A stretch of DNA of 39,785 nt from Akkermansiaceae bacterium (GCA_022425785.1 JAKMEV010000241.1:1-39785); one strand, 5' to 3'. Numbered from the stretch's first letter, positions 4,329 to 31,944 are shown. Numbers and translations: made by a program. The notes: a model not told the origin generated them from the letters alone.

Positions 4329-5582
4329 TTACTTCTTGCCAAAACAATCGAGGCGCGCGCCGATGCGCACATAGAGACGGTCGTGAGCCACCGCAGGAGT
4401 CACATCGGCCCACTCGATTCCCTCCCCCAGCTCCAGGCTGGTGCGTGAGATCTCTTTGTAGGAGGCACCAATTTCCGCGACGATCAATTCGCCTTCCCGG
4501 GACAGGCAAATGAGGCGCCCGCCCACGATCAGTGGCGAAGCATAAAAATTCGCCATGAGCTTTTCCTCCCACTTCTTCTCACCGCTGGAGGCCTCGAGCG
4601 CGACGAGCACTCCTCCATCTGAAACGGAGTAAAACATCTTCCCGTCGGAAACAGGTGTCGGCACGTAGGGCGTGTTGCCCTTCATCTTCCAGACAATCTT
4701 CGCCTCCCCACCCGCTCTCGCCGGAGGACGCACCGTGAAGTAAACGCCACTTTTACAGCCAACCGCGATCTGCACGTCTTTCGAATTCGACCCGGCAAGA
4801 ACATTGATCGGCGAAACAATCGTTCGCTGCTTCATCGAACCGGAAACCTCCCAGCGAACCTTCCCGTCCTTGAGGTCCAATCCAACAACACCAACGCTCT
4901 GGCTTGCCACGACAACTTCCGTCCCTCCGTCAGGTAATTTTCGAACGAGAGGAGTCACATAACTTGTCTTGCCTCCTGGAAACTCGGTCTTCCAAATCGA
5001 CTTGCCATCTTTTGCACCAACCGCACCCACATATCCGACATTCATGTGCAGGTGACACACCAGGATTTTGTCTCCGTGAATCTCGGGGTGAATATTGAGA
5101 CCATGTTGACTTTTTCCGGGGCCAATTTCATGGATCCACAGACTATTTCCTTTGTGATCATAAGCGGACATCATAGCCGACTCCTTCTTCGCACTATACC
5201 AACACACAACCACCATGTCCTCGTTCACTGCCGGACTGGCCGCCGCCGTGTTGTTGAATCGATGCAGGTGATATTCCCCCACATCCAGACTCTTCGCCCA
5301 ACGCTTCTTTCCACTTATTGCATCTAGGCAGGTGAGGGTGACCTTACCCTTTTTTCGATCTTCCCCGGTGACAAACAAGGAATCTCCCCAAATCACCGGC
5401 GAACTGGATCCCGGCCCCGGCAATGGGACCGACCAACACAGGTTTTGCTTCCCAATCTCCTCAGGTAATTTCGCTTCAGAGACGCCGCGTCCATCGACAC
5501 CCCGAAAACGGGGCCAATTTTCCTGGGCGCAGATCGATCCAGCGACAAATGCAGAAAGTAAAACAGGCAGACACAATTTCAT
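4329..5582 (-). CDS. PQQ-like (BamB-like) beta-propeller repeat protein, secreted
   Basis: Signal peptide followed by the N-terminal motif ENWPRFRGVDGRG, then repeated propeller blades. It is a paralogue of 10247..11458. Confidence 0.85.
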   Translation of the reverse strand: MKLCLPVLLSAFVAGSICAQENWPRFRGVDGRGVSEAKLPEEIGKQNLCWSVPLPGPGSSSPVIWGDSLFVTGEDRKKGKVTLTCLDAISGKKRWAKSLDVGEYHLHRFNNTAAASPAVNEDMVVVCWYSAKKESAMMSAYDHKGNSLWIHEIGPGKSQHGLNIHPEIHGDKILVCHLHMNVGYVGAVGAKDGKSIWKTEFPGGKTSYVTPLVRKLPDGGTEVVVASQSVGVVGLDLKDGKVRWEVSGSMKQRTIVSPINVLAGSNSKDVQIAVGCKSGVYFTVRPPARAGGEAKIVWKMKGNTPYVPTPVSDGKMFYSVSDGGVLVALEASSGEKKWEEKLMANFYASPLIVGGRLICLSREGELIVAEIGASYKEISRTSLELGEGIEWADVTPAVAHDRLYVRIGARLDCFGKK

Positions 5583-8872: not shown

Positions 8873-9254
8873 CTGTGATTCACTCTACTCATTGAGTTGT
8901 TCCACCGTCCAACTCTCAATCCGCGATTTGTGAGCATTGCGTAATGCTCTCACCTCATCTTTGCTCACCGGGTTGGTCACATCATCCTAAACAAGCTTCA
9001 TCAACTTCTCCGGAGATCCGATCCGACCACATTCCCGCCACCCGCTCTCCGTGGGCCCACACGCGATGGTCGCTCGAACCCAGCAGGCGATCCAACCAGG
9101 CATCCTGCGACGCTTCAAGGGATCAGCACAAACATTCGCTGTGACCAAATACAAAACGAAAGGAATTCGCTTCAACACAAAGAGAACCCTATCAGCTCAT
9201 CTCCTCTCTGCCGAAAAGAAAGATCCCAATCTCAAAGGCCGTTCTGTGAGCTTG

Positions 9255-10250
9255 ATGAAATTCTTTCTCACCCTGTTCCTTTTGGCCCAAGCATTCGCCA
9301 AACCTCTCGTGATCACCGGCACCACCGAACCTTTCTCCGTCGTTTTCGACAAAGACGGGGCTCTCCTCGGCGTGGAATACGAAAAAGGCAACCGCGTCTT
9401 CCGCTACCAGAGTGGCAAACTCACCTTCATCGCCGGATCGCAATCACCCGGCGGGCAAAAACTTGGCGACGTCTCCGAGGGCGACGGCGGTCTCGCCTCC
9501 AAAGGTCGCTTCAACGGCATGCACGACCTCGCCCTCCATCCCGACGGTCGACTCTTCCTCGCCGATACCTTCAACCGGCGAATCCGCGTCATCGACACCA
9601 AAACCAGCAAACTTTCCACCCTCAAATTCACCGGCCCCCCGCTCAAAAGCCCCTATACTGTCTCCATCAATCCCAAGGGAACCCACCTCCTCATCGCCGA
9701 TCTGAAAAACTACCAAATCCGCGAAATCGATCTCAAATCCATGCTCATCCGCACCGTGGCAGGAAATGGAAAACGCGGCAAGCCCACCGACGGCGGGAAG
9801 GCCACCAAGTCGCCCCTCTACGGACCTCGTGCCGCCGTCTACGGAGCCGATGGCTCAATCTACATCGCCTCCCGCGAAGGCCATGCCCTCCGCCACGTTG
9901 ACCTCAAGGGTCGCATCCATACTCTCGTCAACACCTCAGGAAAAAAAGGCTACTCCGGCGACAACGGCCCCGGACCGCAAGCCAAACTCAAGGGCCCTAA
10001 GCATCTCGCTCTCGACCCCGAAGGCAACATCGTCATCAGCGACGACAATAACCACTGCCTCCGCCTCTACAAAGTGAAGGAGAAAACGATCCACCTCCTC
10101 GCCGGCTCTCCCGGCAAAGCCGGGAAGACCCTCGGCGACTCACCTCTCACCACAAAAATCAATCGCCCTCACGGCGCCCGCTACGATTCCAAAGGCGGAC
10201 TCTGGATCGCCGATTCCATGAACCACCGTCTTCTTCACTTTCCAAAATGA
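9255..10250 (+). CDS. NHL-repeat six-bladed beta-propeller protein, secreted
   Basis: I place the start at ATG 9255 (MKFFLTLFLLAQAFA signal peptide). The track's upstream extension from 9051 looks non-coding. NHL-like blade ends recur: FNRRIRVID, KNYQIREID, GHALRHVD, NNHCLRLY, MNHRLLHF. Confidence 0.8.
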   Translation: MKFFLTLFLLAQAFAKPLVITGTTEPFSVVFDKDGALLGVEYEKGNRVFRYQSGKLTFIAGSQSPGGQKLGDVSEGDGGLASKGRFNGMHDLALHPDGRLFLADTFNRRIRVIDTKTSKLSTLKFTGPPLKSPYTVSINPKGTHLLIADLKNYQIREIDLKSMLIRTVAGNGKRGKPTDGGKATKSPLYGPRAAVYGADGSIYIASREGHALRHVDLKGRIHTLVNTSGKKGYSGDNGPGPQAKLKGPKHLALDPEGNIVISDDNNHCLRLYKVKEKTIHLLAGSPGKAGKTLGDSPLTTKINRPHGARYDSKGGLWIADSMNHRLLHFPK

Positions 10251-11458
10251 ACCTAAAAATTAGTCTCCTCTTCGCCTGCTTCACGACATCCCTCCTCGCC
10301 GACAATTGGCCCGGTTGGCGTGGCCCAGGCGGCGATGGCATTTGCCTCGATAAGAAAGCCCCCCTCTCCTGGACGCTCGAAAAAGATCTCAAATGGAAGA
10401 CCAATATCCCTGGCATCGGCCACGCCTCGCCCATCATTTGGGACGACGCCATTTTTCTCGTTTCCGCCGATGAAGACTCCGGCGAGCGCCTCCTCCTCAA
10501 GCTCGATCGCAAGACCGGGAAATCACTTTGGCAGCAAACAGTCCTCAAATCACCCATCGAAAAGATCCACCGCAAAAACAGCCGCGCTTCCAGCACTCCC
10601 GCCACCGATGGAAAGCTAGTCTATGTCTCCTTCCTCGATAAAGAGGACATGTTCGTCGCCGCCTACGACTTCGATGGCAAAAAAGTCTGGGAAGTTCGTC
10701 CCGGTATTTTCTCAAGCCGCCACGGCTATTGCTCCAGCCCGATTCTTTGGAAAGACAAGATCATCGTCAATGGCGATCACGACGGCGACGCCTACCTCGT
10801 CGGCCTCGACAAAAAGACCGGCAAGACGATTTGGAAAACACCGCGTCCAAACAAAACCCGCAGCTACTGCACACCCATCATCCGCACTATTGAAGGCCGA
10901 AACCAATTGGTCATTTCCGGGAGCAAATGCGTCGCCTCCTACGATCCCGATACCGGCAAACAGCACTGGATCATCGACGGACCCACCGAGCAATACGTCG
11001 CCTCCCCGGTTTACGACGGGAAATACATCTACATGACCTGCGGCTTTCCGACCCTTCACATGATGGCCATCGACCCAACCGGCAGCGGCAACGTCACCGA
11101 CACCCACGTCGTCTGGCACACTCGCAGAGACCCATCCTACGTCCCCAGCCCCGTCGTCACCAACGGCTACTACCTCGTGGTCTCCGACAAAGGAACCGGC
11201 TCCTGTTACCAGGCCCAAAAAGGCGAACGCCTCTGGAAACAAAAGATCGGCCGCGAACACTCCGCCTCCCTCGTCGTAATGCAAGATCACGTCATCTTTG
11301 GGTCCGAAAAGGGTATCATCACCGTTGTCAAACCCGACGCGGAATACAAACAAACCGCCCAAATGTCTCTCGGTGAAGACCTCTCCGCCTCCCCCGTAAT
11401 CGTCAACGGCCAATGGTTTCTCCGGGGAGAGGAGCATCTATTTTGTATTGGAAACTGA
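10247..11458 (+). CDS. PQQ-like beta-propeller repeat protein, secreted
   Basis: An ATGA start/stop overlap with the NHL gene indicates translational coupling. N-terminal motif DNWPGWRGPGGDG. It is a paralogue of 4329..5582. Confidence 0.85.
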   Translation: MNLKISLLFACFTTSLLADNWPGWRGPGGDGICLDKKAPLSWTLEKDLKWKTNIPGIGHASPIIWDDAIFLVSADEDSGERLLLKLDRKTGKSLWQQTVLKSPIEKIHRKNSRASSTPATDGKLVYVSFLDKEDMFVAAYDFDGKKVWEVRPGIFSSRHGYCSSPILWKDKIIVNGDHDGDAYLVGLDKKTGKTIWKTPRPNKTRSYCTPIIRTIEGRNQLVISGSKCVASYDPDTGKQHWIIDGPTEQYVASPVYDGKYIYMTCGFPTLHMMAIDPTGSGNVTDTHVVWHTRRDPSYVPSPVVTNGYYLVVSDKGTGSCYQAQKGERLWKQKIGREHSASLVVMQDHVIFGSEKGIITVVKPDAEYKQTAQMSLGEDLSASPVIVNGQWFLRGEEHLFCIGN

Positions 11459-11621: not shown

Positions 11622-13847
11622 ATGAAAAACACTCGACATAAAATCCTCTCACTCGGGTTCTTAGCAACACTGCCCGCAACAACCCAAGGCTCCCAAATCA
11701 CTTGGGGCACAGCCTTCTCAATCGCCGCTCCGGAAGACATTTCGAATCCCCCGGGAAGCATCATTCACGAGGCACTCGACTTCAACAGTGCCACGGGGGC
11801 AGGTGCGGGAGACGATCTCATGATCAACGGCATCACCTTCACAATCTCAGCAGCGGCAGGGACCGGAAATATTCTCACCAGCATGACCACTGGACCGACT
11901 CACGGGACCGGTTTCTTCACGGGCGCTACGGGCGATACCGATTTAGACACCCTTCTCGACAGCCATGCCTATACCGGAGCGAACCCTGCTGAAATCACCC
12001 TGACCATCAATGGTCTGCAAGCAGGAACAAACTACCAAGTGCAGCTCATCGGAGTCGCCGACGCGCGGGGCTGCTGCGCAGGCCGGACCTACGAACCCGA
12101 TGACGGGTTGGGGAACTTCAACACCGGAATTGAAATGCCGCGAGGCGACTTTGCCAGCGTTTTAGGAACCTTCACTGCCGACGCCATTAACCAAAACATC
12201 CTCTGGAGATCTCTTGGCGGCTTAGCGGGCAATAGTGACGCCGGGTTTTCCGGGATCGTCGTGATCGAAATGCCCGATTCCGAGGACAACGATTTGGACG
12301 GACTCACGAACAGCTGGGAAAATCTTCACGGCCTAAATCCCAACAACAATGACTCCGACGGGGATCTGATCCTCGATGGTGACGAAGACGAAGACAATGA
12401 TGGCCTCGACAACCTTGGGGAACAGGCTGCCGGGACCGATCCAGCAGACGAGGACACCGATGATGACACCCTTCTGGATGGTGACGAAACAAACACCGGA
12501 ATCTGGAATGGCACCTCAGACACCGGCACCCATCCTCTCATTGGAGATTCCGATGGCGACAGCCTCTCCGATGGCGTCGAAAATCCCGACCTTCCCTTCG
12601 TCGATGTAAACCAAACGGGCTCCAACCCTAACGTTACCGATACTGATAGCGATAACCTTCCCGACGACGTGGAAGTTGGCATTGGCTACAATCCAAACGA
12701 CGATGATACAGACGACAACCTGACCCTCGACAGGGATGAGGACTTCGACTCTGATGGTTCTACCAACGGCAGCGAACTCGCCAATGGCACCGACATTGCC
12801 GACGACGACTCCGATGATGATGGCTACCTCGACGGTGTCGAAACCAACACTGGAGCTTGGGTGAGTGCGACCAATACCGGAACAAATCCTCTCGACAATG
12901 ACACCGATAACGACGGACTCCTTGACGGTGTTGAAAATCCTGACCTTCTCTTTGTCGATGCCAACCAAACCGGCACCAACCCTCATCTCTGGGATACCGA
13001 CAACGATCTCCGCAGCGACGGATTTGAAATCACCGAAGGCTCAGACCCGACCAATGCAGATGACTTCACCGCTCTTCCTGCGGTCTCATTACGACCTGGC
13101 CTCATCGGCGGCGACCTCACCGACCCTGAAAACGACGGCATCGATACCGAAGATACCGCTGGCACCAACTTCAACTGGGTCAGCATCACTTCCAGTTCAA
13201 AATCCTTCTTCACCGATGCGACTGCGGGTGGCTCGAACGAAGGAGCCTTCGATGTCTTCGACAACAACGTTGGACCAGGCCACTTCAAATGGTGCTGCGA
13301 CGCTCCGCCTCAGGACCTCACCGTAGAATTCGAAGATCCCATCTCCATCACTCACTTTACCCTGACTTCCAGCAACGACTCCCCGCTTCGCGACCCAGTC
13401 GAATGGGAAATTCAGGGATCTGACGACGGTATAGATTTCACCCCTATTTATCGCAGCACGAACCCGGCAATTTGGACTGCCCGTAATCAAACCGCCCTCT
13501 TTCTCCTCGAGACACCAGCGGTAAGCTACAAGTTTATCCGTTACCAGGTCAACACCACGGGCAACGGCCTGAACCACGCTCTGGGTGAAATCGAGTACTT
13601 CGGCGACGCCGGCACCACTCCGCTGGAAGTCACGGACATCAGTTACAATACAGACACGAATCGAGTGACCCTCGTTTGGACCTCCAAGCCTGGAAGGACC
13701 TACACTGTCTTCACGAACACCGACCTGGGTGTCTTCGATGCTGATGTAAACGATTCCGTTCCTTCTGGCGGAGATCTCACCACCTATGAATTCCCTGATC
13801 CCAACCCCGGGTCTGACCAACAATTCTTCAAGGTCGTCGAAAACTAA
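11622..13847 (+). CDS. Large secreted surface protein: unassigned N-terminal 'RxCC' domain, TSP3-type Ca-binding repeats, F5/8 type C (discoidin) domain and the recurrent C-terminal module
   Basis: Signal peptide. The N-terminal domain (~11690-12280) contains LDSHAYTG and NYQVQLIGVADARGCC. D/N-rich TSP3 repeats (~12290-13060) include an internal duplication. The discoidin-like region (~13160-13620) reads FKWCCDAPPQDLTVEF...VEWEIQGSDDG...YKFIRYQV...LGEIEYFG. The C-terminus ends ..TYTVFTNTDL...QQFFKVVEN. Confidence 0.85.
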   Translation: MKNTRHKILSLGFLATLPATTQGSQITWGTAFSIAAPEDISNPPGSIIHEALDFNSATGAGAGDDLMINGITFTISAAAGTGNILTSMTTGPTHGTGFFTGATGDTDLDTLLDSHAYTGANPAEITLTINGLQAGTNYQVQLIGVADARGCCAGRTYEPDDGLGNFNTGIEMPRGDFASVLGTFTADAINQNILWRSLGGLAGNSDAGFSGIVVIEMPDSEDNDLDGLTNSWENLHGLNPNNNDSDGDLILDGDEDEDNDGLDNLGEQAAGTDPADEDTDDDTLLDGDETNTGIWNGTSDTGTHPLIGDSDGDSLSDGVENPDLPFVDVNQTGSNPNVTDTDSDNLPDDVEVGIGYNPNDDDTDDNLTLDRDEDFDSDGSTNGSELANGTDIADDDSDDDGYLDGVETNTGAWVSATNTGTNPLDNDTDNDGLLDGVENPDLLFVDANQTGTNPHLWDTDNDLRSDGFEITEGSDPTNADDFTALPAVSLRPGLIGGDLTDPENDGIDTEDTAGTNFNWVSITSSSKSFFTDATAGGSNEGAFDVFDNNVGPGHFKWCCDAPPQDLTVEFEDPISITHFTLTSSNDSPLRDPVEWEIQGSDDGIDFTPIYRSTNPAIWTARNQTALFLLETPAVSYKFIRYQVNTTGNGLNHALGEIEYFGDAGTTPLEVTDISYNTDTNRVTLVWTSKPGRTYTVFTNTDLGVFDADVNDSVPSGGDLTTYEFPDPNPGSDQQFFKVVEN

Positions 13848-13882
13848 TTACGGTTTTCACCTCCTTTTTCCAAAATCAACCA

Positions 13883-13919
13883 ATCAGCCCTCTCCTAGAG
13901 AGGGCTGATTTTCTCTTTT
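13883..13919 (+). terminator. Rho-independent terminator
   Basis: Perfect 11-bp stem atcagccctct / agagggctgat with a short loop, followed by tttctctttt. It lies 36 nt after the stop at 13847. Confidence 0.8.
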
Positions 13920-13925
13920 GCCATC

Positions 13926-16900
13926 ATGAAAAAACTCCATCCGCGCCATCTTTCACTGGTTCTCATCGCCTCTTTGAACTGCAGCGCCTTATTACTATCT
14001 GCCGCTGAAATCGCCTGGCAACCCACCTTCAATCTTACCAATGCCAATCAGGTGGATACCAACGGAACTCTCGTCAAAGCAGTCAACGCGACAAGCGACG
14101 GAGACAGCACAACCGTAAACATCGGTGGAGAAAACATCCTCTTTGCAGCCGAGGCAATCGCTCCCAGCAATACCAACACGGGAACTTTTTTCACTGGAGG
14201 AGGAGGCGACTCTGGCAATCCCCAACTCAACACCGTCCTCAACAGCCACTCCTATGCCGGAGGTGGATGGACTTTCCAACTTACCGGACTCACCGGAGGT
14301 GCAGACTATCAAATTCAACTCATTGGGGCAGCCGACACCCGGGGCTGTTGTTCCTCCCGGAATCAACGGGCCGGCGACGACGAATCACCCGAGAATGTCA
14401 GCGACGATTTCTCCCGCAGCGGAGTAGGCTCGGTCATCGGAACCTTCACCGCCGGCGGAACCAACCAAACGATCAACCTCCTCGGCGGGGTCAACAACGG
14501 AGTGGATCCCGGCCTCAGCGCCTACATTCTCCGCGCCACCGCACCACCCACTCCCCAGCCGCCCACCGATATCGCACTCAGCAATACCGACCTCGCACCA
14601 GACTCTGCCGCAGGTACTCTCGTCGGAGCACTAACTACTTCCGACCCCAACGGTGATAACAACCACAGCTATAGCTTCGTCGACACCGGAAATTTCCCTG
14701 ACAACAACCTCTTCACCATCGCCAACGGTGATCAGCTCCGCGCCGATTCCGCTCTCGGTAGCTTCGGTGCGAGCTACTCGATCCGTCTCCGCACGACCGA
14801 CTCCGACACTCTTACTTACGAAGAAACGTTCACCCTCAGTGTCGAAGCGGCCATGGCACCCACTGCACTCTTCTTCCCGTCAAATACCGTTCTCCTCGGC
14901 ACTCCTTCCGGATCAACCATCGCCGACTTCGCCACCGAGGATCCCAATACAGCCGACGCTCACAGCTATCAGCTTGTCTCCGGTGCAGGTGATACCGATA
15001 ATGCCTCCTTCACGATCTCCGGCAACACTCTCCAAACCGCCGCCGCCCTCCCCGGCCTCGGGTCCATGCTCAATTTCCGCGTCCGCAGCACCGACCTCTC
15101 CGGACTTTCCATCGAACAAACCTTCACCCTCACTGTCGTGGGAAACTCACTTCGCATTAACGAATTCCTCGCCAACCCCAACGCCTCCAGCCTTCAGGAC
15201 GAAGATGGCGAAACCTCGGACTGGGTCGAACTTCACAATCCCGATGGAGGATCGATCAGTCTCAATGGATACTACCTCACCGATGACCCGGACCAATTGA
15301 CCAAGTGGCAGTTCCCCAACGTCTCGATTTCCGGAAACGGCTACCTCCTCATCTTCGCCTCTGGCAAAGACCGCCGTCCCACCAATGGCGACGAACTCCA
15401 CAGCAACTTCAGCCTCTCCGCCAATGGAGAATACCTCGCCTTGGTCAGCCCGGATGGCAGCACCGTCCTTTCGGAATTCGGCACCTCCACCACCGACTAC
15501 CCCAGCCAACAAGGCAACGTCTCCTACGGATTCTTCGGCGACCCACTCCAGGTCGGCTTCCTTCTCAATCCGACCCCGGACGAATCCAACGCCACCGGAA
15601 ACGGCGTCTCCGGCTTTGTCGCCGACACCGACTTCGGCGTCTCACGCGGCGTATTCGGTAGCCCCTTTTCTCTAACCATCACCACCGCCACCGCCGGAGC
15701 CTCCATCCGCTACACCACCGACGGAAGCTGGCCCAGCGAGACCAATGGCACCATCTACACTGGCCCCATCTCCGTGAATCGCTCCATGGCAGTCAAAGCC
15801 ATCGGCTACCGCTCCGGCTACGTCTCGACCAACATCGATACCCACACCTACATCATCCCGAGCACCGTGCTCGATCAGACTTCTGCCAATACCCAAAGCC
15901 TCTATGGTCTCCCTTCAAGTTGGGACGGACAATCTCCCTACTACGGCATGAACAACAATTCCAATGCCAACCCCGATACACACCCCACCATGGAGGATGA
16001 CCTCACCACTGTCCCCAGCCTTTCGATCGCGATGGATGTTGACGACATGTTCGGCTCCTCCGGGATCTACTCCAATCCTGGTTCATCCGGCTCCTCGTGG
16101 GAGCGCAAAACATCTCTCGAACTCGTTGATCCCGAGGACCCCACTGGAGACAGCAACTTCCAACAAAACTGCGCCATCAGGATCCAAGGCGGCGCCTTCC
16201 GAAGCTTTGGCCTCACTCGCAAGAAGTCCTTCCGTGTCCTCTTTAAATCGGAATACGGCACCAGCAACCAACCCACCGACGGTCCTGGATCGCTCAAGTT
16301 CCCTCTCTTCGGCACCGAACCCGGAGTCGCCCAGGAATTCCAAACTCTCGTTTTCCGTATGGAATCAAACGACGGCTGGCAATGGTCCGGCGCAGGAAGC
16401 CAACCACAATACGCTCGCGATGAATTTGGCCGCCGCACCCAGCTCGCCCTCGGGCACCCCGCCCCTCACGGTCGCTACCTCCACGTCTATATCAATGGCG
16501 TTTACTGGGGACTCTACAACATCGTCGAACGTCCCGACTCCAGCTTCGCCGAAAGCTACGTCGAAGACGCCGTCCGTGAAGAATGGGAAGGGCAAAACTC
16601 CGGCACCCCCATCAACAGCTCCACCAACCTCAACAACTGGAACAGCCTCCTTTCCGCCGTCAATGACATCTCCGGCACCAACCTTCAACGCGACGCCGCT
16701 TTCTTAAAAGCCTGCGGATTCAACCCCGACGGCACCCGCAATGCCAGCTTCCCCGTCTGGTGCGATCCTTCCAACAATGCCGATTACTTCATCACCAATT
16801 GGTATGGTGGCAACAGCGACTGGCCTAACAAAAACTACTACGGCGGCATTCAGTCCCAGGCTCCGCGTCACGGCTACAAGTACTTCATGTGGGATTCCGA

Positions 16901-19073
16901 ATGGTCCCTCTTCCTTCGTTCCAACACAAACTACAACCGCATTACCAACTACAACGGCATCGCCGCCGCCAACGACCGATTGCAAGACAGCCCGGAATTC
17001 CGCCTTCGCTTCGGTGACCGGGTCCACCGTGCCTTTTTCAATAACGGACCTCTCACTCCCGCCGCGGCCCTGGCCCGCTACCAAGAAGTCACCGCCGATC
17101 ACCGGAGCATCCTCAACCCCGAAGCAGCACGCTGGGGAGATCAACATGGCGGCAACCGCTCCCTCAGCGACTGGGAGGGCGAATACAATCGAATCGTCAG
17201 TGACTGGTTCCCCGACCGGCCGGATCTCTTCTTAAGCAGCCTCCGCTCGGCCAACCTCTACCCTAATCTTGCCGCACCGACCTACAGTCAGCATGGCGGC
17301 TCCATCCCTGCCGGCTCCGGTCCTTCTTTCATCACCCCGACCACCGTAGACAAAGTCTACTACATCTTCGGGGATGGTGACAATGACCTCACCGACTACG
17401 CGCACTCCCTCGACCCACGCCTTGTCGGCGGAGGAATTAATCCCTCTGCTAGTTTGGTTACCTTGGGAGACGGCGGTGGAGTCGGTGGCCCCACCACCAC
17501 CCGCTATATTGAAAGCGGCCACACTTGGAGTTACCTCGACGACGGTTCCGACCAAGGTACCGCCTGGCGGGGAGTAGGATTCAATGATGCCTCATGGGAT
17601 TCCGGAGCTTCTCCCTTGGGATACGGTGATGGCGATGAAACCACCGAGGTCGATTTTATCGATGTTGATCCCGGCACAAATGGAGATCAAAAAAATGCCA
17701 CCACCTACTTCCGCACCACCATCAATATCGGCGACCCTTCCGCCTTTGAAGCCTTCACTCTAAATTATGTCTACGACGATGGCATTGTCGTCTACGTCAA
17801 CGGCAACCGCGTCGATGGTCAGAACCTGGGAAACAATCCCTCATTCGATGAATACGCTGGAACCAACAGTGATGATAACGACACAGGTTCAATCAGCTTG
17901 TCTCCTAACACCTTCGTCAGCGGCTCCAACACGATTGCCGTCGAAATTCACCAAGCCTCTTCTAGCAGTTCGGACATCAGCTTCGATCTCGACCTCACCG
18001 GCTTCCCCCCCGGCGTGGGCGGTGGTGACACCCACTCATCAAACCCTCTCTCCCTCACCGAACCCGGCTGGCTCTTCTCTCGTTCTTACAATAGCGCCAC
18101 CGGAGAATGGAGTGCGCTCAATACCGCATTCTTCACTCCGGATACCGTGCCAGCTGACGCGAGCAACCTGGTCATCTCCGAAATAAACTATCATCCCGGT
18201 GAACCCTCCACTCCAGGGGAACTGGCAACCTCGACCGATCGCGATGACTACGAGTTTATCGAACTCATGAACGTCAGCACGTCGACCATCGATCTAACCA
18301 ATGTCCGCTTTACCCTCGGCATCACCTTCGCCTTCGCCGAAAACACCCTGATTGCTCCCGGAGGACGTCTGGTTCTGGTTAAAAACAAAGCCGCCTTCGA
18401 CGCCCGCTATCCCGGACTCTCAGGCACTATCAATATCGCCAACGATGTTCTCGGCAGTAATGACTACAGCGGACGCCTCGCCAACGAGGGCGAACAACTC
18501 ATCCTCCTCGATGCCAATGATATCGCGATCCACAACTTCACCTACGACGACGATCTCCCCTGGCCTCTCGCCGACGGTAGTTCGTTTACTCTCGTGCTGA
18601 AATCCCCGGCATTACCCATCCCGGATCACGGCCTCGCTGCCAATTGGATCGGCTCCAACAATCCCAATGGAGCTCCCGGATCAGAAACCGAAGCCGGCTT
18701 TGTCGGTGACAGCACCGCAGACAGTGACGGCGATCGCTATTCCGCCCTTTTTGAGTACGGACTCGGAACCAGCGACCTCCTCTTTGGGGATGCGCAGACA
18801 AAAATCGACGCCTCCTCCACCTCACTCACCGTAGGCGAAGAAACCGATGACTATTACGTGATCACCTTCGAGAGAAACCTCTACACGCAAAATGCCGTTA
18901 CGCTGGTTCCACAACTCTCATACGACCTGGTCACCTGGGATACCGAAACCGCGTTGGTCTTCCTCTCCGAGAGCGACAACCTCGATGGCACCGCGACCGT
19001 CTCCTACCGTAGCGCCTCGCCCTTGAGCATTAAGATTCAGGCCTTCGTCAGACTCATGGCAACCCAGCAGTAG
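13926..19073 (+). CDS. Giant secreted CotH-family protein (1715 aa) with two lamin-tail domains, cadherin-like repeats and accessory beta-sandwich modules
   Basis: Modules in order. Signal peptide. N-terminal 'RxCC' domain (ADYQIQLIGAADTRGCC, ~14005-14540). Two cadherin-like repeats (HSYSFVDTG.., HSYQLVSGAGDTDNASFTISGNTL; ~14560-15140). LTD 1 (LRINEFLANP...SDWVELHNP...YYLTDD, ~15147-15480). A CHB_HEX_C-like module (ASIRYTTDGS...AVKAIGYRSG). The CotH core (~16020-17270: CAIRIQGGAFRSF..KKSFRVLFK...RDEFGRR...YLHVYINGVYWGLYNIVERPD). A jelly-roll module (WSYLDDGSDQGTAWRG...DDGIVVYVNGNRV...AVEIHQ). LTD 2 (LVISEINYHP...YEFIELMN, ~18168-18600). A TSP3 motif and the C-terminal module. Confidence 0.9.
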   Translation: MKKLHPRHLSLVLIASLNCSALLLSAAEIAWQPTFNLTNANQVDTNGTLVKAVNATSDGDSTTVNIGGENILFAAEAIAPSNTNTGTFFTGGGGDSGNPQLNTVLNSHSYAGGGWTFQLTGLTGGADYQIQLIGAADTRGCCSSRNQRAGDDESPENVSDDFSRSGVGSVIGTFTAGGTNQTINLLGGVNNGVDPGLSAYILRATAPPTPQPPTDIALSNTDLAPDSAAGTLVGALTTSDPNGDNNHSYSFVDTGNFPDNNLFTIANGDQLRADSALGSFGASYSIRLRTTDSDTLTYEETFTLSVEAAMAPTALFFPSNTVLLGTPSGSTIADFATEDPNTADAHSYQLVSGAGDTDNASFTISGNTLQTAAALPGLGSMLNFRVRSTDLSGLSIEQTFTLTVVGNSLRINEFLANPNASSLQDEDGETSDWVELHNPDGGSISLNGYYLTDDPDQLTKWQFPNVSISGNGYLLIFASGKDRRPTNGDELHSNFSLSANGEYLALVSPDGSTVLSEFGTSTTDYPSQQGNVSYGFFGDPLQVGFLLNPTPDESNATGNGVSGFVADTDFGVSRGVFGSPFSLTITTATAGASIRYTTDGSWPSETNGTIYTGPISVNRSMAVKAIGYRSGYVSTNIDTHTYIIPSTVLDQTSANTQSLYGLPSSWDGQSPYYGMNNNSNANPDTHPTMEDDLTTVPSLSIAMDVDDMFGSSGIYSNPGSSGSSWERKTSLELVDPEDPTGDSNFQQNCAIRIQGGAFRSFGLTRKKSFRVLFKSEYGTSNQPTDGPGSLKFPLFGTEPGVAQEFQTLVFRMESNDGWQWSGAGSQPQYARDEFGRRTQLALGHPAPHGRYLHVYINGVYWGLYNIVERPDSSFAESYVEDAVREEWEGQNSGTPINSSTNLNNWNSLLSAVNDISGTNLQRDAAFLKACGFNPDGTRNASFPVWCDPSNNADYFITNWYGGNSDWPNKNYYGGIQSQAPRHGYKYFMWDSEWSLFLRSNTNYNRITNYNGIAAANDRLQDSPEFRLRFGDRVHRAFFNNGPLTPAAALARYQEVTADHRSILNPEAARWGDQHGGNRSLSDWEGEYNRIVSDWFPDRPDLFLSSLRSANLYPNLAAPTYSQHGGSIPAGSGPSFITPTTVDKVYYIFGDGDNDLTDYAHSLDPRLVGGGINPSASLVTLGDGGGVGGPTTTRYIESGHTWSYLDDGSDQGTAWRGVGFNDASWDSGASPLGYGDGDETTEVDFIDVDPGTNGDQKNATTYFRTTINIGDPSAFEAFTLNYVYDDGIVVYVNGNRVDGQNLGNNPSFDEYAGTNSDDNDTGSISLSPNTFVSGSNTIAVEIHQASSSSSDISFDLDLTGFPPGVGGGDTHSSNPLSLTEPGWLFSRSYNSATGEWSALNTAFFTPDTVPADASNLVISEINYHPGEPSTPGELATSTDRDDYEFIELMNVSTSTIDLTNVRFTLGITFAFAENTLIAPGGRLVLVKNKAAFDARYPGLSGTINIANDVLGSNDYSGRLANEGEQLILLDANDIAIHNFTYDDDLPWPLADGSSFTLVLKSPALPIPDHGLAANWIGSNNPNGAPGSETEAGFVGDSTADSDGDRYSALFEYGLGTSDLLFGDAQTKIDASSTSLTVGEETDDYYVITFERNLYTQNAVTLVPQLSYDLVTWDTETALVFLSESDNLDGTATVSYRSASPLSIKIQAFVRLMATQQ

Positions 19074-19084
19074 AACGACGGCAC

Positions 19085-19120
19085 AAAAAAACCGCGGTGC
19101 CATTCACAGCACCACGGTTT
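19085..19120. terminator. Bidirectional rho-independent terminator between convergent genes
   Basis: An A7 run precedes the stem ccgcggtgc / gcaccacgg (8 of 9 pairs) with loop cattcaca, followed by ttt. It lies between the stops at 19073 (+) and 19137 (-). Confidence 0.65.
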
Positions 19121-19136
19121 GAGAATTTGGGAAAGG

Positions 19137-19808
19137 CTATCGGCGGCGACGAGCGGTCAATCCAAGAAGTCCAACCAGCGAAAGCAGGGCTGAACCGGGC
19201 TCGGGAATAGCAGGACCAAGATCGCGAACGATCAAGCCACTGAGACCCGGATCAGTGGCACCGGCCACGAAGAAGGTCTGGAGCTCAGTGTCTGCAACAA
19301 AATTTCCAACGACCCAATCACCATTCCCCCGGATCAAATCTCCACTGATGTTTCCATTGCCATCGTTAACGTTTTGAGCCCTGCCTAAACAGCAACTACG
19401 ACTGTCACCAACTCCAATGAACTGGACGTCGTAGGCATTTCCTACAGTCACCGGAAAAGCGACTATGCCGACTCCATTAGGATTCGCATTCGCAATGTAA
19501 GTGTGACTGTCCATGAGAATGTCAAGATTACTGTTATCAGTGGCCGGAGCGTAAAACGTACCTGGAGTATTAATTATATCGCCAGCTTGCGCAGTCGCAA
19601 ATCCCCCGCCCGTAAAGACATTGGTCCCGATCGTGAAAGTAGTTGCGGAATCTGCACCTCCATCAATAGCGGCATAAGGGCTTCCAGTCTCGATAAGATC
19701 GGTAGACTGAATCCCTGAACCAACGGCACCCCAGGAGACTACCGCCGCCTGAGTGGTCATCAGAGACCCTGCAAAGGCCCCTAAAATCATCGTTTTTGTG
19801 TTTTTCAT
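19137..19808 (-). CDS. PEP-CTERM-anchored secreted protein consisting only of the 'RxCC' domain
   Basis: I place the start at ATG 19808 (MKNTKTMILGAFAGSLMTTQA); the track start at 19826 is TTG. The domain contains LMDSHTYI and AYDVQFIGVGDSRSCC. The C-terminus IPEPGSALLSLVGLLGLTARRRR is a canonical PEP-CTERM sorting signal. Confidence 0.85.
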   Translation of the reverse strand: MKNTKTMILGAFAGSLMTTQAAVVSWGAVGSGIQSTDLIETGSPYAAIDGGADSATTFTIGTNVFTGGGFATAQAGDIINTPGTFYAPATDNSNLDILMDSHTYIANANPNGVGIVAFPVTVGNAYDVQFIGVGDSRSCCLGRAQNVNDGNGNISGDLIRGNGDWVVGNFVADTELQTFFVAGATDPGLSGLIVRDLGPAIPEPGSALLSLVGLLGLTARRRR

Positions 19809-19988
19809 AATTAAACTGACGTGCAAGTTACCGAAAAAATGCAGGCACTACAAGTAATTTTCACCTTAAATCGATCAACATGCCCCTTCACCAATGATTT
19901 GGCTCATTAACTAACCTAACAATCTCAACGGCGCGCCCTCTAAAGTAGAGATCGCCTGCTGATATAGAGCGGGGCCGCAGCCCGAGAA

Positions 19989-21167
19989 TCATTCATCCAC
20001 CTTCTCCTCCGGCACCCGCTGTTTCGCCTTGGGATCGACGAGCCGTGGCCGATTCTGGAAAAAGGCCTTCCGCGACTCCGTCGAAGGCACTCCCTCCGGT
20101 GTCTTTGGAAGCTCATCGCCCTCTCTCATCTCCAGGAGATTCTTATCGGTAAAGGTGTGCATCAGGGCCACCAGGTCATCAACCTCCTGATCCGTCAGCT
20201 TCAAATCACCCATATCGTCGTGATTCACCGTTTCGGGAAAATCAGTCTTGCCCCAACGCTTCGGCTCGACATCGCGTTTGTTATAAAACTCCATCACCTC
20301 TTTCAGCGTTTTGATTGAACCATTGTGCAGATAAGGCGCTGTCAGCGCGATGTTCCGCAAAGTCGGTGAGCGAAATTGACCCATCTCGTTTTTCCGGCCC
20401 GAAACCCCTCCGAGACCCGGATCTTTTCCTCCGATCGAAGGCGCGCCGAGATTATCATACCCAAAGTCACTCAAAAGCGGCTCCGGCCAGGTTCCCACCC
20501 CGAGGGGATGGCACTGCGCACAGCCCGCCTTGCTTTGAAAAAGCGCAAGCCCCCGCAATTCGGAGTCATTCAGCGCCTTCACATCACCTTTCCAGAAATC
20601 ATCAATCCGCGCATTGAAAGGACGAAACATGGGCTCCCGCAAAAAGGCTACCAGTGAATGATACACCTGATCCACCAACTTTCCGTCATTCCCCCAGACC
20701 TTCCCGCCAACCAACTTCTTGAAATCCGAGGCATATTCCGATTTACGAATCCGGGCCGCTAAATCCGCCGGGCCGGACAGGTTCATTTCATCCTTATTAA
20801 AGAAGGGCATCAGCACTTGCTCGAACTGATCGTGCGCCCGTCCATCAAGGAACAAGCCTCCCTCCAGAACATAAATCAACTCCCCTTCCTCATCATAAAA
20901 ATCCTCCGCCGCTATCGGCGGAATGAGCGCCGCATACATTAAGGTCGGCGCATTCCGTCGGCCTTTCCGCCCATTCACCGCTCCCGGCGACACCCGGCGC
21001 GCATCCGCGAAGGCCGCCTTCGGATCATGACAGGACACACATCCCTGCCCGACCGGCTGGGACAAACTGGTATCCATGAAAATCTTCCGCCCAATCACCA
21101 CCGGAGAGACCTCTTCCGCCCGGGCAAGACACCCGGCGACCATCATAACGAACGCAAACCATTTCAT
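19989..21167 (-). CDS. Di-heme cytochrome c peroxidase (CCP/MauG family)
   Basis: Signal peptide and two CxxCH motifs (GQGCVSCHDP and KAGCAQCHP) in the spacing and context typical of bacterial CCP. Confidence 0.9.
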   Translation of the reverse strand: MKWFAFVMMVAGCLARAEEVSPVVIGRKIFMDTSLSQPVGQGCVSCHDPKAAFADARRVSPGAVNGRKGRRNAPTLMYAALIPPIAAEDFYDEEGELIYVLEGGLFLDGRAHDQFEQVLMPFFNKDEMNLSGPADLAARIRKSEYASDFKKLVGGKVWGNDGKLVDQVYHSLVAFLREPMFRPFNARIDDFWKGDVKALNDSELRGLALFQSKAGCAQCHPLGVGTWPEPLLSDFGYDNLGAPSIGGKDPGLGGVSGRKNEMGQFRSPTLRNIALTAPYLHNGSIKTLKEVMEFYNKRDVEPKRWGKTDFPETVNHDDMGDLKLTDQEVDDLVALMHTFTDKNLLEMREGDELPKTPEGVPSTESRKAFFQNRPRLVDPKAKQRVPEEKVDE

Positions 21168-22207
21168 TTCCTCTTACCAAGACCGATCTTCTTACAATAA
21201 GCGATACTCCGCTCGATGTCACCCAACTGGTATTTCTGGGTTTCCTCTTTCGACTTCCCTTTGAAGGGGGGCTTCTTCCTACCGCCGACGGCCCACTTTT
21301 TAAAGGCATCCAGACTCGCAGGCTTCTTGCCCCACTTCTTCCACATCTCCTCGTCCTTAATCGCGAACTCCTTATTGAATCCCGAGATCGTTTCAATCTG
21401 TACTGGCGCATTGGGACACAACTCGGCGAAGCGCTTGAAGTAAGTTTTCCAATCCACCATCCCTTCGCCCATCGCGGTCCACTGCACGGTCACGCCTTTC
21501 TCGCTTTCCCAAATCCGGGAATCACGAAGGCTCGTCGTCAGGGTATACTTTCCAAGATTCTCGAGATTCTCGAGCGGAGTTTCGAACGTCCACACCGCAT
21601 TTCCGGCATCGAGATTCACACCTACAAAATCCGGCCCGGCCTTTTCGACCAGGCTCTTCACCTCCAGTGAATGCATGTCGCCGGCATGATTCTCCATCGC
21701 CACTTTCACTCCCAGATCCTGGCACAAACTCTTGTTTCTCTTCAGCACTTTGACCGTGTCATCGATGCGCGCTTCAATCCCGCCCTCGGTCTGGCGATCC
21801 CGACTATTTCCGAGCACCACTCTCAAAACCGGCGAGCCCAGGGCCTTCGCCGCACGAAGACCCAACTGCAAATGCTCATCGGCCGTGCCCCGGTTGTCGC
21901 GGAAAGAAACCGAGGTCGGACAGACACTCCAGGTTCCCAGGAAAATCTTAATCCCTTTGTCGTCAGCATACTTCTTGATCCCGCCCAGCGCCTTCAGGTC
22001 CAAAGTCTCAAAGGCGTCAAGATCTGTAATAAACACCGTATCGACCTTCAGCTTCACCGCGTAGTCAATCAACTCCTTCGCCTTCCATCCCATCGCGCGC
22101 ACCGCGAAATTGTCATACCCCAAAAGAAGAGGATTCTTGGCCTCATCCGCCAAGGCAACCCCGGCCGAAGCCGCCAACGAACTCCCAATAAACTGACGCC
22201 GATTCAT
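21164..22207 (-). CDS. Tat-exported xylose-isomerase-like TIM-barrel protein (sugar phosphate isomerase/epimerase family)
   Basis: I place the start at ATG 22207, which gives the twin-arginine signal MNRRQFIGSSLAASAGVALA. The TIM-barrel family pattern is present (VAMENHAGD.., GVNLDAGN). An ATGA overlap links it to the downstream CCP gene. Confidence 0.8.
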   Translation of the reverse strand: MNRRQFIGSSLAASAGVALADEAKNPLLLGYDNFAVRAMGWKAKELIDYAVKLKVDTVFITDLDAFETLDLKALGGIKKYADDKGIKIFLGTWSVCPTSVSFRDNRGTADEHLQLGLRAAKALGSPVLRVVLGNSRDRQTEGGIEARIDDTVKVLKRNKSLCQDLGVKVAMENHAGDMHSLEVKSLVEKAGPDFVGVNLDAGNAVWTFETPLENLENLGKYTLTTSLRDSRIWESEKGVTVQWTAMGEGMVDWKTYFKRFAELCPNAPVQIETISGFNKEFAIKDEEMWKKWGKKPASLDAFKKWAVGGRKKPPFKGKSKEETQKYQLGDIERSIAYCKKIGLGKRK

Positions 22208-22261
22208 CGCCCCCGAGTTTCCCAACTCCCCCTCATCAAGCAAGCTTCGGTTTCAACGAAT

Positions 22262-28554: not shown

Positions 28555-30099
28555 TTACTTTCCGGTCGTCCCAGCCTCCCGGTAGAAATTATCCGGGAAG
28601 GGCGCCCCCGTGGTCCCCTTGATCTTGCGGTGAAAATACTTGTTCCCCCGATCGGGCATCAAGGGCATTGCCTCGCCGCCTGATTCCTTGAGCAGGGAAA
28701 AAAGCGCCTTGTTCATTTCGGTGACCCGGGCGGCCTGCGTAGAATCATTGAAAAGATTGATCCGCTCTTTGGGATCAGATTTGAGATCGTAGAGCTCATC
28801 GACATCCCACACCCCGTGATAGCGGATGTATTTATAGTCCTCGCCAATCACGGCATGGGTCGTGGGCGTCTGCGGGTAGTTGCGCTCCCAGTAATATTCG
28901 TAGAGCAAATACTTACGCCAATCTGCGATCTTCTCTCCTTTCGCGAGAGGCCAAAAACTAGCTCCGTTCATTTCCCCCGTGGCCTTCAAGCCAGCCGCTT
29001 CCAACAAGGTGGGAGCGACATCGATGTTCGCGACAATTTTCTCCACGGTCGTCCCGCCTTTGATCGCCTTGGGATAGCGAATCAACATCGGGACTTTCAC
29101 CGACTCGTCATAAGCACATCGCTTGTCGATGAGTCCATGCTCGCCAAAAATAAACCCGTTGTCACCGAGATACAAAACTACCGTGTTCTCCAATTCTCCG
29201 CTCTTCTCGAGATTGCCCAAAAGACGTCCCACACTATCGTCGACCGCGAGAAGTGCTTCGCAGTAGCGACGGTAATATTTCTTCATGTCCACTCCGGTGT
29301 AATAGGCAAACTCCACACCGTGACGGCTGTTGGTTTGATTGCGCACCCACATCGGCGGGTCTTTGAACATGTCCGGATTCGCCGTCGGCGTTGGCGGAGT
29401 GGGAATGTCCACTTTGTCGTATTTGAAGGCATGACGATCCGGCGGAAGAAAATCGGCATGCACGCCTTTGTGTGAGACGTAGAGCAGGAAGGGTTTCTCT
29501 TCGTCTTTCGACGCCAACCACTCTTCGGCAAAGTCGGTCAGCTCATCTGTAATGTATCCTTTTTGCGGAACTTTTTTTCCGTTAATATTGTAGCCCGAGT
29601 TGATCGCTTGGGGCACGAAGCGTCCTTTCGCTTTGAGCATCTTGGGATCGGGCACGTAAACTCCCTGTCCTTTAAAGCTGATCCAGTGATCAAAGCCCCG
29701 CTGCTTTTCCTCGCTGTCGCCCATGTGCCATTTCCCAATGAAGGCCGTCTGGTATCCCGCCTTCTGCAGAAGCTCGGGAAAAAAGGTCAGCGACTTGCTT
29801 ACCGGATTGTAATTATCCACAACATGGTGGTTGTGCGCGTAGAGCCCGGTCAGAATTGAGGCCCGGCTCGGCGAGCACAGCGAAGTCGTGACGTAGGCAT
29901 TTTTAAAATGAACTCCCTCAGCCGCCAATCGGTTAAAATTCGGCGTCTTGAGAAAAGGATGCCCCAGAAAGCCCATCGCATCGTATCGATGGTCATCGGT
30001 GAGAATCACCACGATATTCGGCTGCTTTGCCGCCTGGGCGGGCCCCAACACCAAAAAAATCCCAACGACCAATAATCTGACAATCCCTTGATTCATCAT
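28555..30099 (-). CDS. Cys-type sulfatase (formylglycine-dependent, N-acetylglucosamine-6-sulfatase-like)
   Basis: I place the start at ATG 30099 or 30096, with a signal peptide. It carries NIVVILTDDHRYD and the FGly motif SLCSPSRASILTG. Confidence 0.9.
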   Translation of the reverse strand: MMNQGIVRLLVVGIFLVLGPAQAAKQPNIVVILTDDHRYDAMGFLGHPFLKTPNFNRLAAEGVHFKNAYVTTSLCSPSRASILTGLYAHNHHVVDNYNPVSKSLTFFPELLQKAGYQTAFIGKWHMGDSEEKQRGFDHWISFKGQGVYVPDPKMLKAKGRFVPQAINSGYNINGKKVPQKGYITDELTDFAEEWLASKDEEKPFLLYVSHKGVHADFLPPDRHAFKYDKVDIPTPPTPTANPDMFKDPPMWVRNQTNSRHGVEFAYYTGVDMKKYYRRYCEALLAVDDSVGRLLGNLEKSGELENTVVLYLGDNGFIFGEHGLIDKRCAYDESVKVPMLIRYPKAIKGGTTVEKIVANIDVAPTLLEAAGLKATGEMNGASFWPLAKGEKIADWRKYLLYEYYWERNYPQTPTTHAVIGEDYKYIRYHGVWDVDELYDLKSDPKERINLFNDSTQAARVTEMNKALFSLLKESGGEAMPLMPDRGNKYFHRKIKGTTGAPFPDNFYREAGTTGK

Positions 30100-30206
30100 G
30101 CCGTCACCCTGACAGACTACCTGCCGATGACAACCCATCCAAAAAATATGTCGCGGAAACGATTTTTAGGAATATTTTCCGTTCTCGGACATCTTTATCC
30201 CCACTC

Positions 30207-31473: not shown

Positions 31474-31944
31474 ATGGCCGCCCCAAAAACAGTCGCCGAA
31501 CCTCACAAGGAACTCCGCTTCACCCGCGCCGGACAGGCTCAGGGTATGTTCGTTGGGGCCACCGTGGCCTTCGCCTTTACCCTTCTTATCACCATCACCT
31601 GGTTTATGGGCCACCCGGATTTCCGTTGGTGGATGCCTCTTCCTTTCCTCGTCTTGGCCTGGCTCCTCGCCAGAGTCGCGCTCCATTGCACCCGCCACGC
31701 CTACATCATCCTCACTCCGATGGGTATCGAGATTTTCCCGCTCCTCAAGCCGGAGAAAAATCTCAGTCTGATCTACTGGACCGAACTCGATCACGCTGAT
31801 TTCAACGAAGACCTCACGCTCGCCAAAATCCACCGCGATGCCGAAGAAAGCTCTGGCGCGGTCCTTTCCCTGAAGCCCATCCTCGCAAAACAACGCCCCC
31901 TCCTCAAGAAAGCCCTCGAAGGCCGCCTCGCGGAAAAAGCCTAA
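31474..31944 (+). CDS. Membrane protein, two TM helices plus a bacterial PH-like (YdbS/YdbT-like) domain
   Basis: A TM hairpin (FVGATVAFAFTLLITITWF / WWMPLPFLVLAWLLARVAL) is followed by a ~80-aa soluble domain. Its stop overlaps the selB stop (CTAA, 31941-31944). Confidence 0.55.
   Translation: MAAPKTVAEPHKELRFTRAGQAQGMFVGATVAFAFTLLITITWFMGHPDFRWWMPLPFLVLAWLLARVALHCTRHAYIILTPMGIEIFPLLKPEKNLSLIYWTELDHADFNEDLTLAKIHRDAEESSGAVLSLKPILAKQRPLLKKALEGRLAEKA

Follow-up and report, generated by a model that had tools for sequence, protein, structure and literature searches.

Here we describe three neighbouring genes, called A, B and C, which lie on a 39,785-nucleotide stretch of DNA from a marine Akkermansiaceae bacterium (GCA_022425785.1, JAKMEV010000241.1:1-39785; hereafter the window, at its full length) and whose products all start, right after the signal peptide, with the same type of domain, which we call the head. 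The three heads are paralogous, far beyond chance, and belong to a large family which the curated sequence libraries searched do not cover. From a structure model we conclude that the head has a malectin-like beta-sandwich fold (CBM57-type; CBM, carbohydrate-binding module) and yet constitutes a separate sequence family. The reading which we favour, with moderate confidence, is that of a secreted malectin-like module for ligand binding, with a glycan as the probable ligand, and the conservation pattern makes a loop with conserved Q, D and R residues the likely binding site. Neither the fold as such nor the general plan of surface proteins with a CBM-like head is new. Undescribed in the libraries and literature searched are the sequence family, its distribution in the Planctomycetes-Verrucomicrobia-Chlamydiae (PVC) group of bacteria, a vicinal disulfide that would be conserved and yet dispensable, and the exchange of heads as cassettes.

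Paralogous heads and their family

The three open reading frames (ORFs) are present where a preliminary description of this DNA, made from the nucleotide sequence, had placed them: A at 11622-13847 on the plus strand (741 aa), B at 13926-19073 on the plus strand (1715 aa) and C at 19137-19808 on the minus strand (223 aa; an alternative TTG start at 19826 is possible, and the orthologues have 223 aa). Each product carries a typical signal peptide, and the head, about 180-190 aa long, begins at the very next residue. In A, the signal peptide MKNTRHKILSLGFLATLPATTQG (residues 1-23; 11622-11690, plus strand) shows a basic n-region, a hydrophobic core and, ahead of the cleavage site, small residues, and is followed by the head at residues 24-217 (11691-12272, plus strand), which also matches the family profile. 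The signal peptides of B (residues 1-26; 13926-14003, plus strand) and C (residues 1-22; 19743-19808, minus strand) were likewise read from the sequence, and the heads behind them, recognized by paralogy, occupy residues 27-205 of B (14004-14540, plus strand) and 23-199 of C (19212-19742, minus strand).

BLASTP comparison of the N-terminal ~230 residues gave E-values of 8e-21 for A and B (with an alignment spanning residues 103-214 only), 3e-23 for A and C and 4e-16 for B and C, at 27-39% identity; the similarity reported in the preliminary description thus survives statistical alignment. A three-way alignment contains 36 invariant columns, including (in A numbering) W28, S114-H115, Y138, Q141, D147, R149, C151, C152, G182, F184 and A186, and all five motif blocks listed earlier are visible in it. 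With a profile of the three heads no fourth copy was found among all six-frame ORFs of the window.

Scanning of Pfam-A and NCBIfam gave no match on the heads of A, B and C, the partner modules being matched instead, and no credible Pfam or NCBIfam family was obtained for any of 41 diverse head members scanned singly. The PDB sequence library yielded nothing with the three-paralogue profile, and a deeper profile gave no significant full-domain match to PDB sequences, only a 24-36-residue E-F hairpin of the fibronectin type III (fn3) domain. The head is therefore, as had been proposed, without a named sequence family. This family is nevertheless large: an exhaustive search with a hidden Markov model (HMM) through 1.84 billion cluster representatives (50% identity) detected the head in 1,197 of them at E ≤ 1e-3, in 322 at E ≤ 1e-10 and in 43 at E ≤ 1e-30. 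When the 41-sequence profile was used in a word-indexed homologue search, nearly all matches were close orthologues of C. Heads were found in Akkermansiaceae/Verrucomicrobiales, Planctomycetales (Botrimarina, Lacipirellulaceae) and Victivallales, all of the PVC group, a taxonomic range that is a lower bound, coming from a pattern-based scan seeded from the window proteins. In the source annotations the members are called 'PEP-CTERM sorting domain-containing', 'hypothetical' and, once, 'sugar-binding protein, partial'. Literature searches on PEP-CTERM together with malectin, and on CotH/LTD in Verrucomicrobia, found nothing relevant.

Domain architectures were counted in the best 150 of the 1,197 representatives. 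The commonest is a short stand-alone head with a PEP-CTERM tail, as in C (51 representatives), while tandem arrays of 2-4 head copies occur in 33. The first head copy is internal in 27 of the 150, so the 'tip' position ascribed to the head holds for A, B and C, where it follows the signal peptide, and not for the whole family. Partners encountered in 57 multidomain members were Laminin_G_3, F5_F8_type_C, TSP3_bac, PEP-CTERM, Ig, CBM9_1 and fn3, and further Dockerin, CHB_HEX_C_1, FG-GAP, LTD and CotH; among the 25 partner families listed for these members there is no recognised glycoside-hydrolase or lyase domain. The three architectures described for the window itself, namely the stand-alone PEP-CTERM protein, the TSP3/discoidin fusion and the CotH/LTD giant, were all found again. 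Like other PEP-CTERM/exosortase proteins (TIGR02595), C and 71 of the 150 representatives, counted over all architectures, end with P-E-P, a hydrophobic helix and a basic cluster. The NCBI name, however, covers the 24-residue tail only, and the 180-aa passenger head is left unannotated. In PVC bacteria (marine polysaccharide-degrading Verrucomicrobia, Planctomycetes) many large surface proteins are annotated solely as 'PEP-CTERM domain-containing' or 'hypothetical', and the definition of the head provides a handle on more than 1,000 protein clusters and a candidate family of Pfam/CAZy type.

Predicted fold and the candidate binding loop

The C head sequence was modelled by AlphaFold2 with the 41-sequence alignment. 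The model, of mean predicted local distance difference test (pLDDT) 90.9 and predicted TM-score (pTM) 0.89, is built almost entirely of beta strands, with one short helix; single-sequence AlphaFold2 reached a pLDDT of 36 only. Foldseek comparison with the PDB gave ten matches at E ≤ 1.3e-3, with query-normalised TM-scores (TMq) of 0.52-0.63: eight to ANX1, ANX2 or FER, one to human malectin and one to a bacterial enzyme. At the top stand the malectin-like domains of ANX1/ANX2/FER (entries 6fig, 5y96, 6a5c and 6a5e; E from 7.5e-5 to 1.3e-3, TMq 0.59-0.63). Human malectin (9ikp) was matched over 180 columns at E 4.2e-4 with TMq 0.61 and a target-normalised score (TMt) of 0.59, and an unspecified region of beta-glucuronidase 2 of Bacteroides uniformis (6d8g) at E 8.8e-4 and TMq 0.56. 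Other CBM jelly rolls (CBM35, CBM51 and others) appeared at E of about 5e-3 to 2e-2 and TMq 0.33-0.41, and the viral structure library contributed generic tail-fibre jelly rolls only (TMq ≤ 0.47). The head thus maps to a characterised family at the level of fold, which is predicted to be malectin-like, and not at the level of sequence. The malectin-like fold would in this way extend to a distinct family of bacterial surface proteins without a detectable sequence link.

Malectin (PF11721, CBM57; human 9ikp, Xenopus 2k46) and the head have in common an extracytoplasmic beta-sandwich of ~180 aa and a resemblance, not significant, in the motifs A-x-N-x-G-G...G-I-x-F and G-x-Y-x-V-x-L and in the D-(N)-P loop with the last strand. 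They differ in that the head loop would carry D-x-R-x-C-C in place of the malectin contact residues, and in that the head is found in PVC bacteria, with PEP-CTERM and tandem-array architectures. Closer in structure are the CrRLK1L receptor kinases (ANX1, ANX2, FERONIA; PF12819), the best structural matches, which share with the head a malectin-like three-dimensional structure combined with scant sequence likeness: plant CrRLK1L malectin-like domains resemble malectin in three dimensions and hardly in sequence (PMC7783096). Unlike the head, the plant domains come as tandem pairs attached to a kinase, and their binding partners are RALF peptides and LLG proteins.

Several observations weigh against a malectin-like, glycan-binding head. 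None of the 41 members matches Pfam Malectin (PF11721) or Malectin_like (PF12819), even at E ≤ 1. Alignment by hhalign with human malectin (the query being 100% identical to 6s7t/9ikp) and with an animal malectin profile had a probability below 1% and covered a local hairpin of 25 residues, although this profile-profile test is weak, given that the malectin profile is shallow (10 sequences, all animal, as were the best 120 matches listed). The sugar-contact residues of malectin (Xenopus Y67, Y89, Y116, F117 and D186; PMC7783096, citing Schallus 2008/2010) appear not to be kept in the head. The ligands of the top structural matches, ANX and FER, are peptides and proteins and not proven glycans, which means that a sugar ligand does not follow from the fold. 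Finally, the assignment of the fold is itself drawn from a predicted model.

Greedy hhalign extension makes the head collinear end to end with human malectin, in an alignment that is statistically meaningless. In it, A-x-N-x-G-G...G-I-x-F stands opposite malectin AVNAGGEAHVDVHGIHF, and G-x-x-Y-x-V-Q opposite malectin G-D-Y-V-L-V. In the C head, D115 is paired with human E130, R117 with Y132 and S118 with F133, next to the two cysteines, and the DPG loop is paired with YYDNP, where malectin D186 is one residue off the D of DPG. Human Y132, F133 and D202 correspond to Xenopus Y116, F117 and D186, which the passage of PMC7783096 citing Schallus et al. gives as proposed di-glucose contacts. The binding loops of head and malectin may accordingly occupy equivalent places, as far as such an alignment can suggest it.

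Two other assignments were rejected. With the fn3 domain the head shares a 25-35-residue E-F hairpin/tyrosine-corner motif (T-L-x-G-L-x-P-G-x-x-Y-x-V-Q), but it is twice the fn3 length, the match is limited to this hairpin, the best whole-protein Pfam E-value is 0.059 and the model resembles malectin, not fn3. A jelly-roll lyase of PL7 type or another enzyme, considered on account of Q/R/H/Y-like motifs, found no structural or sequence match, and H86, the histidine of the SH(x)Y block, is poorly conserved across the family.

The preliminary description drew attention to a pair of adjacent cysteines preceded by DxR. Mature heads of A, B and C indeed contain exactly two cysteines each, side by side in the translations: Cys151-Cys152 in A (D-A-R-G-C-C; 12072-12077, plus strand), kept in all A orthologues examined, Cys141-Cys142 in B (14346-14351, plus strand) and Cys139-Cys140 in C (19389-19394, minus strand). 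Of 220 domain copies from the family, 144 have C-C at this site, 60 have neither cysteine, 13 have gaps and three a register-shifted CC; these last, apparent 'xC' cases, are displaced by one residue and still read CC. A lone cysteine occurs in no copy. Counted per domain, there are two cysteines in 138 copies and none in 60. The pair is thus conserved in A, B and C, as had been stated, and in their orthologues, whereas family-wide it is present in about two thirds of the copies. A rough neighbour-joining tree, built without the CC columns, shows at least 24 switches from CC to none, and six proteins combine head copies with and without the pair.

The residues around the cysteines behave differently. 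Q111, D116 and R118 (family numbering, here and below) are conserved at 97-99% overall and, whether the copies have the CC pair or lack it, at 97-100%, so that the DxR is near-invariant throughout the family; R124 is conserved at 85% and D130 at 79%. Further near-invariant positions, W5, F44, L102, G105, Y108, G150, F152 and A154, are of the core type. In the model the polar segment Q-x4-D-x-R-(x-C-C)-x2-R forms a confidently predicted loop between two strands.

A strict both-or-none pattern of cysteines in an exported, otherwise cysteine-free domain fits the signature of an intradomain vicinal disulfide, and since there is no other cysteine to serve as a partner, we infer such a bond, in line with the idea put forward earlier. 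With a third of the copies lacking the pair, the bond would be dispensable. According to section 2.5.5 of PMC12102755, vicinal disulfides may contact the undecorated face of a sugar ring (e.g. in 1wd4), stabilise, or act as a switch. The arabinofuranosidase 1wd4 resembles the head in having adjacent cysteines in a loop of a secreted carbohydrate-related protein (same section, citing Richardson et al. 2017); it differs in that the bond of the head is deduced from covariation and that a third of the head family does without the pair. The four cysteines of A are all paired in this vicinal way, one pair in each of two lectin-type domains. The second pair, Cys558-Cys559 (KWCC; 13293-13298, plus strand, from the translation), lies inside the discoidin domain, and nearly every orthologue examined keeps KWCC. 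A vicinal disulfide that is conserved and yet repeatedly lost would be a rare natural experiment on the role of such bonds.

We propose that the head is a secreted beta-sandwich module of ~175-195 aa starting at the signal-peptidase cleavage site, which C would display alone on the cell surface by means of its PEP-CTERM anchor, and which would be joined in A to calcium repeats and a discoidin domain and in B to a giant CotH/LTD protein. The functional site would consist of the Q-x4-D-x-R-x-C-C-x2-R segment and the terminal D-P-G-L-S loop, segments that come opposite the Y116/F117 and D186 loops of malectin in the non-significant collinear alignment. Where present, the vicinal disulfide would stiffen the binding loop and may offer a flat non-polar surface to a sugar ring. 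A binding role is favoured because the partners are adhesin and lectin modules, without a recognised glycoside hydrolase or lyase among the listed families, and because tandem arrays of 2-4 copies are usual for binding modules.

Exchange of heads and the rival explanations

The order of A, B and convergent C is kept in ten related loci (L001-L005, L010, L011 and L013-L015) and, in Akkermansiaceae/Verrucomicrobiales metagenome-assembled genomes, down to 56-70% identity; the locus usually adjoins a di-haem peroxidase gene and a xylose-isomerase-like gene. In three distant loci (L012, L018, L021) a small PEP-CTERM head protein stands beside larger head-bearing proteins, including, in L018, a CotH-like protein of about 34% identity. 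A distant stand-alone head, P0175 of L022, has no other called PEP-CTERM or adhesin-type neighbour, going by Pfam labels only.

Within this conserved frame the heads are exchanged. The DNA of L002 and L003 is 93-97% identical to the window up to position 19208, and the match resumes at 19989 or 20001 (blastn). The first breakpoint is the head/PEP-CTERM junction of C and the other the end of the neighbouring peroxidase gene, and the exchangeable cassette, replaced in L002 and L003, comprises the head of C with its signal peptide and the intergenic DNA upstream (19209-19988). In these two loci the C head shares 42% identity with that of the window, against 92-98% for the A and B heads. Altogether, C heads are of two types, with 64-93% identity within a type and 39-49% between the types. 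Exchange reaches A as well: the head of the A orthologue in L011 is 89% identical to the C head of the same genome, compared with ~40% for normal A versus C heads. A orthologues with a C-type head are found in L011 (1491-3683 together with 8940-9680) and in L009 (7725-9920), their heads being 62-63% identical to the C head of the window and 38-42% identical to its A head. Such a C-type head on an A orthologue indicates, as judged from these identities, intra-locus conversion between paralogues, and the heads are exchanged by recombination as functionally interchangeable cassettes. Exchange between A and C and across lineages points to one generic role of the head. From the sharp edges of the replacement one may also suspect that variability of the surface is selected for in these bacteria, which have been little studied.

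A more far-reaching view, which we consider unlikely, would make the heads polymorphic, recombination-shuffled recognition cassettes of the PVC cell surface, with the anchor and the bodies of the proteins fixed. The heads would then confer a variable specificity, either for ligands or for self versus non-self, or else attach A and B to C and its PEP-CTERM anchor. If true, surface display of this kind would not have been described before, and a vicinal disulfide would lie in the loop responsible for recognition.

Docking could also be the whole purpose of the head. As a protein-protein assembly module it would let anchored C tether A and B, which are without an anchor, in a cohesin-dockerin manner, by head-to-head contacts that are either non-covalent or made by intermolecular disulfides of the CC pair. 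Such tethering would agree with a recognised anchor in C only, with the synteny of A, B and convergent C and the pairings in the three distant loci, and with the best structural matches, since plant malectin-like ectodomains bind peptides and proteins (6a5e, FER-RALF23-LLG2). We nevertheless find it rather unlikely. Replacement of the C head by a 42%-identical type, next to nearly unchanged A and B heads, is hard to square with co-evolved contacts, stand-alone PEP-CTERM heads are the commonest of all and the one in L022 is solitary by the Pfam labels of its neighbours. Moreover, tandem arrays inside one protein better suit binding by avidity, the three genes have separate terminators, and the both-or-none cysteines are at least as well explained by a vicinal bond inside the domain as by links between molecules.

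That the head is a purely structural beta-sandwich, a folding nucleus or a spacer with no specific ligand, is quite unlikely in our opinion, even though most of the near-invariant positions are of the core type, the cysteine pair is dispensable in one third of the copies and the D/R/R/D residues could make a salt-bridge network or a calcium site. Where the head stands alone on its anchor, as in 51 of the 150 representatives, there is nothing for it to space or stabilise; the cassette-like way in which heads are replaced, and their divergence, suggest selection on an outward-facing function, and the residues conserved above 97% (Q111, D116, R118) cluster in a single loop segment. Some jelly-roll domains, e.g. 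PL7 lyases, are enzymes, and an invariant D and R beside two cysteines resemble an active-site signature; in addition, a di-haem peroxidase gene adjoins the locus. A catalytic, redox or metal centre at DxRxCC, with the head being an enzyme (jelly-roll lyase-like or of the thiol redox kind), seems to us highly improbable all the same, because 60 of the 207 scorable copies are without both cysteines and yet keep Q, D and R, no catalytic family is matched by sequence, the histidine at position 86 is poorly conserved family-wide, no enzyme is found at a comparable TM-score among the top structural matches and the location is extracytoplasmic and oxidising. From the two roles suggested in the preliminary description, a ligand-binding or a catalytic head, the former is thus the best reading, and the metal, redox or catalytic use of the CC pair is unlikely.

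Gene layout and surroundings

Behind its head, A continues with an Asp-rich stalk of calcium-binding-type repeats (TSP3/CglD-like; approximately 12273-13184, plus strand), in which the matched stretch comprises residues 270-468. The score for the CglD region (NF033765, 8.4e-14) is far under the family cut-off, and TSP3_bac is weak (0.031). It is followed by an F5/8 type C (discoidin) domain at residues 522-649 (13185-13568, plus strand; PF00754, 2.1e-10, 41.3 bits at a cut-off of 28.2). The body of B (14541-19073, plus strand) contains, in this order, weak cadherin/Ig-like repeats, LTD (approximately ~412-530), CHB_HEX_C_1/Fn3_assoc (575-642), CotH (751-1091), LTD (1410-1540) and a C-terminal region without an assigned family; Pfam E-values are 6.8e-26 for LTD (two stretches), 9.7e-18 for CotH and 7.9e-14 for CHB_HEX_C_1, and He_PIG and Cadherin are weak.

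The C-terminal ends of A (13587-13847) and B (about 18700-19073), as well as those of relatives in L001-L020, have a closing [FY][FILVM][KRQ][VLI] strand, examples being QFFKVVEN, AFVRLMATQQ, FIRLKATQ and FYRIKAS. The A and B tails gave no alignment to each other and no Pfam family; these ends might be a PVC-specific module.

In C, the PEP-CTERM anchor AIPEPGSALLSLVGLLGLTARRRR (residues 200-223; 19137-19211 with the stop codon, minus strand; TIGR02595) belongs to the tail IPEPGSALLSLVGLLGLTARRRR, which displays the C-terminal P-E-P, a hydrophobic helix and an Arg cluster. TIGR02595 scores 17.5 bits at a cut-off of 16, and PF07589 18.9 bits, just under its cut-off of 20.7. No cognate exosortase was found among the ten window proteins scanned.

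A terminator-like hairpin with a 13-bp perfect stem and a T-run lies between A and B (13882-13910), and a bidirectional one, with a 14-bp perfect stem, an A-run and a T-run, between the convergent B and C (19089-19120). Judged by these strong hairpins, the three genes would be separate transcription units.

Upstream of A, there are two PQQ_2/BamB-like beta-propeller proteins, paralogues of about 30% identity (4329-5582, minus strand, and 10247-11458, plus strand), and an NHL-repeat protein (9051-10250, plus strand); this neighbourhood is kept in L001-L003. On the other side, a gene for di-haem cytochrome c peroxidase (CCP_MauG) and a xylose-isomerase-like TIM-barrel gene (19989-22243, minus strand) still adjoin the locus at 62-76% identity (L010, L016). 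Further away are a SelB selenocysteine elongation factor gene (31941-33884, minus strand) and a sulfatase gene (28555-30138, minus strand). Across positions 1-38000 of the window the GC skew of the plus strand is strongly negative, with values of about -0.1 to -0.28 in nearly all 2-kb bins, regardless of the gene strand, and the composition of the window yields many long spurious ORFs overlapping A and B.

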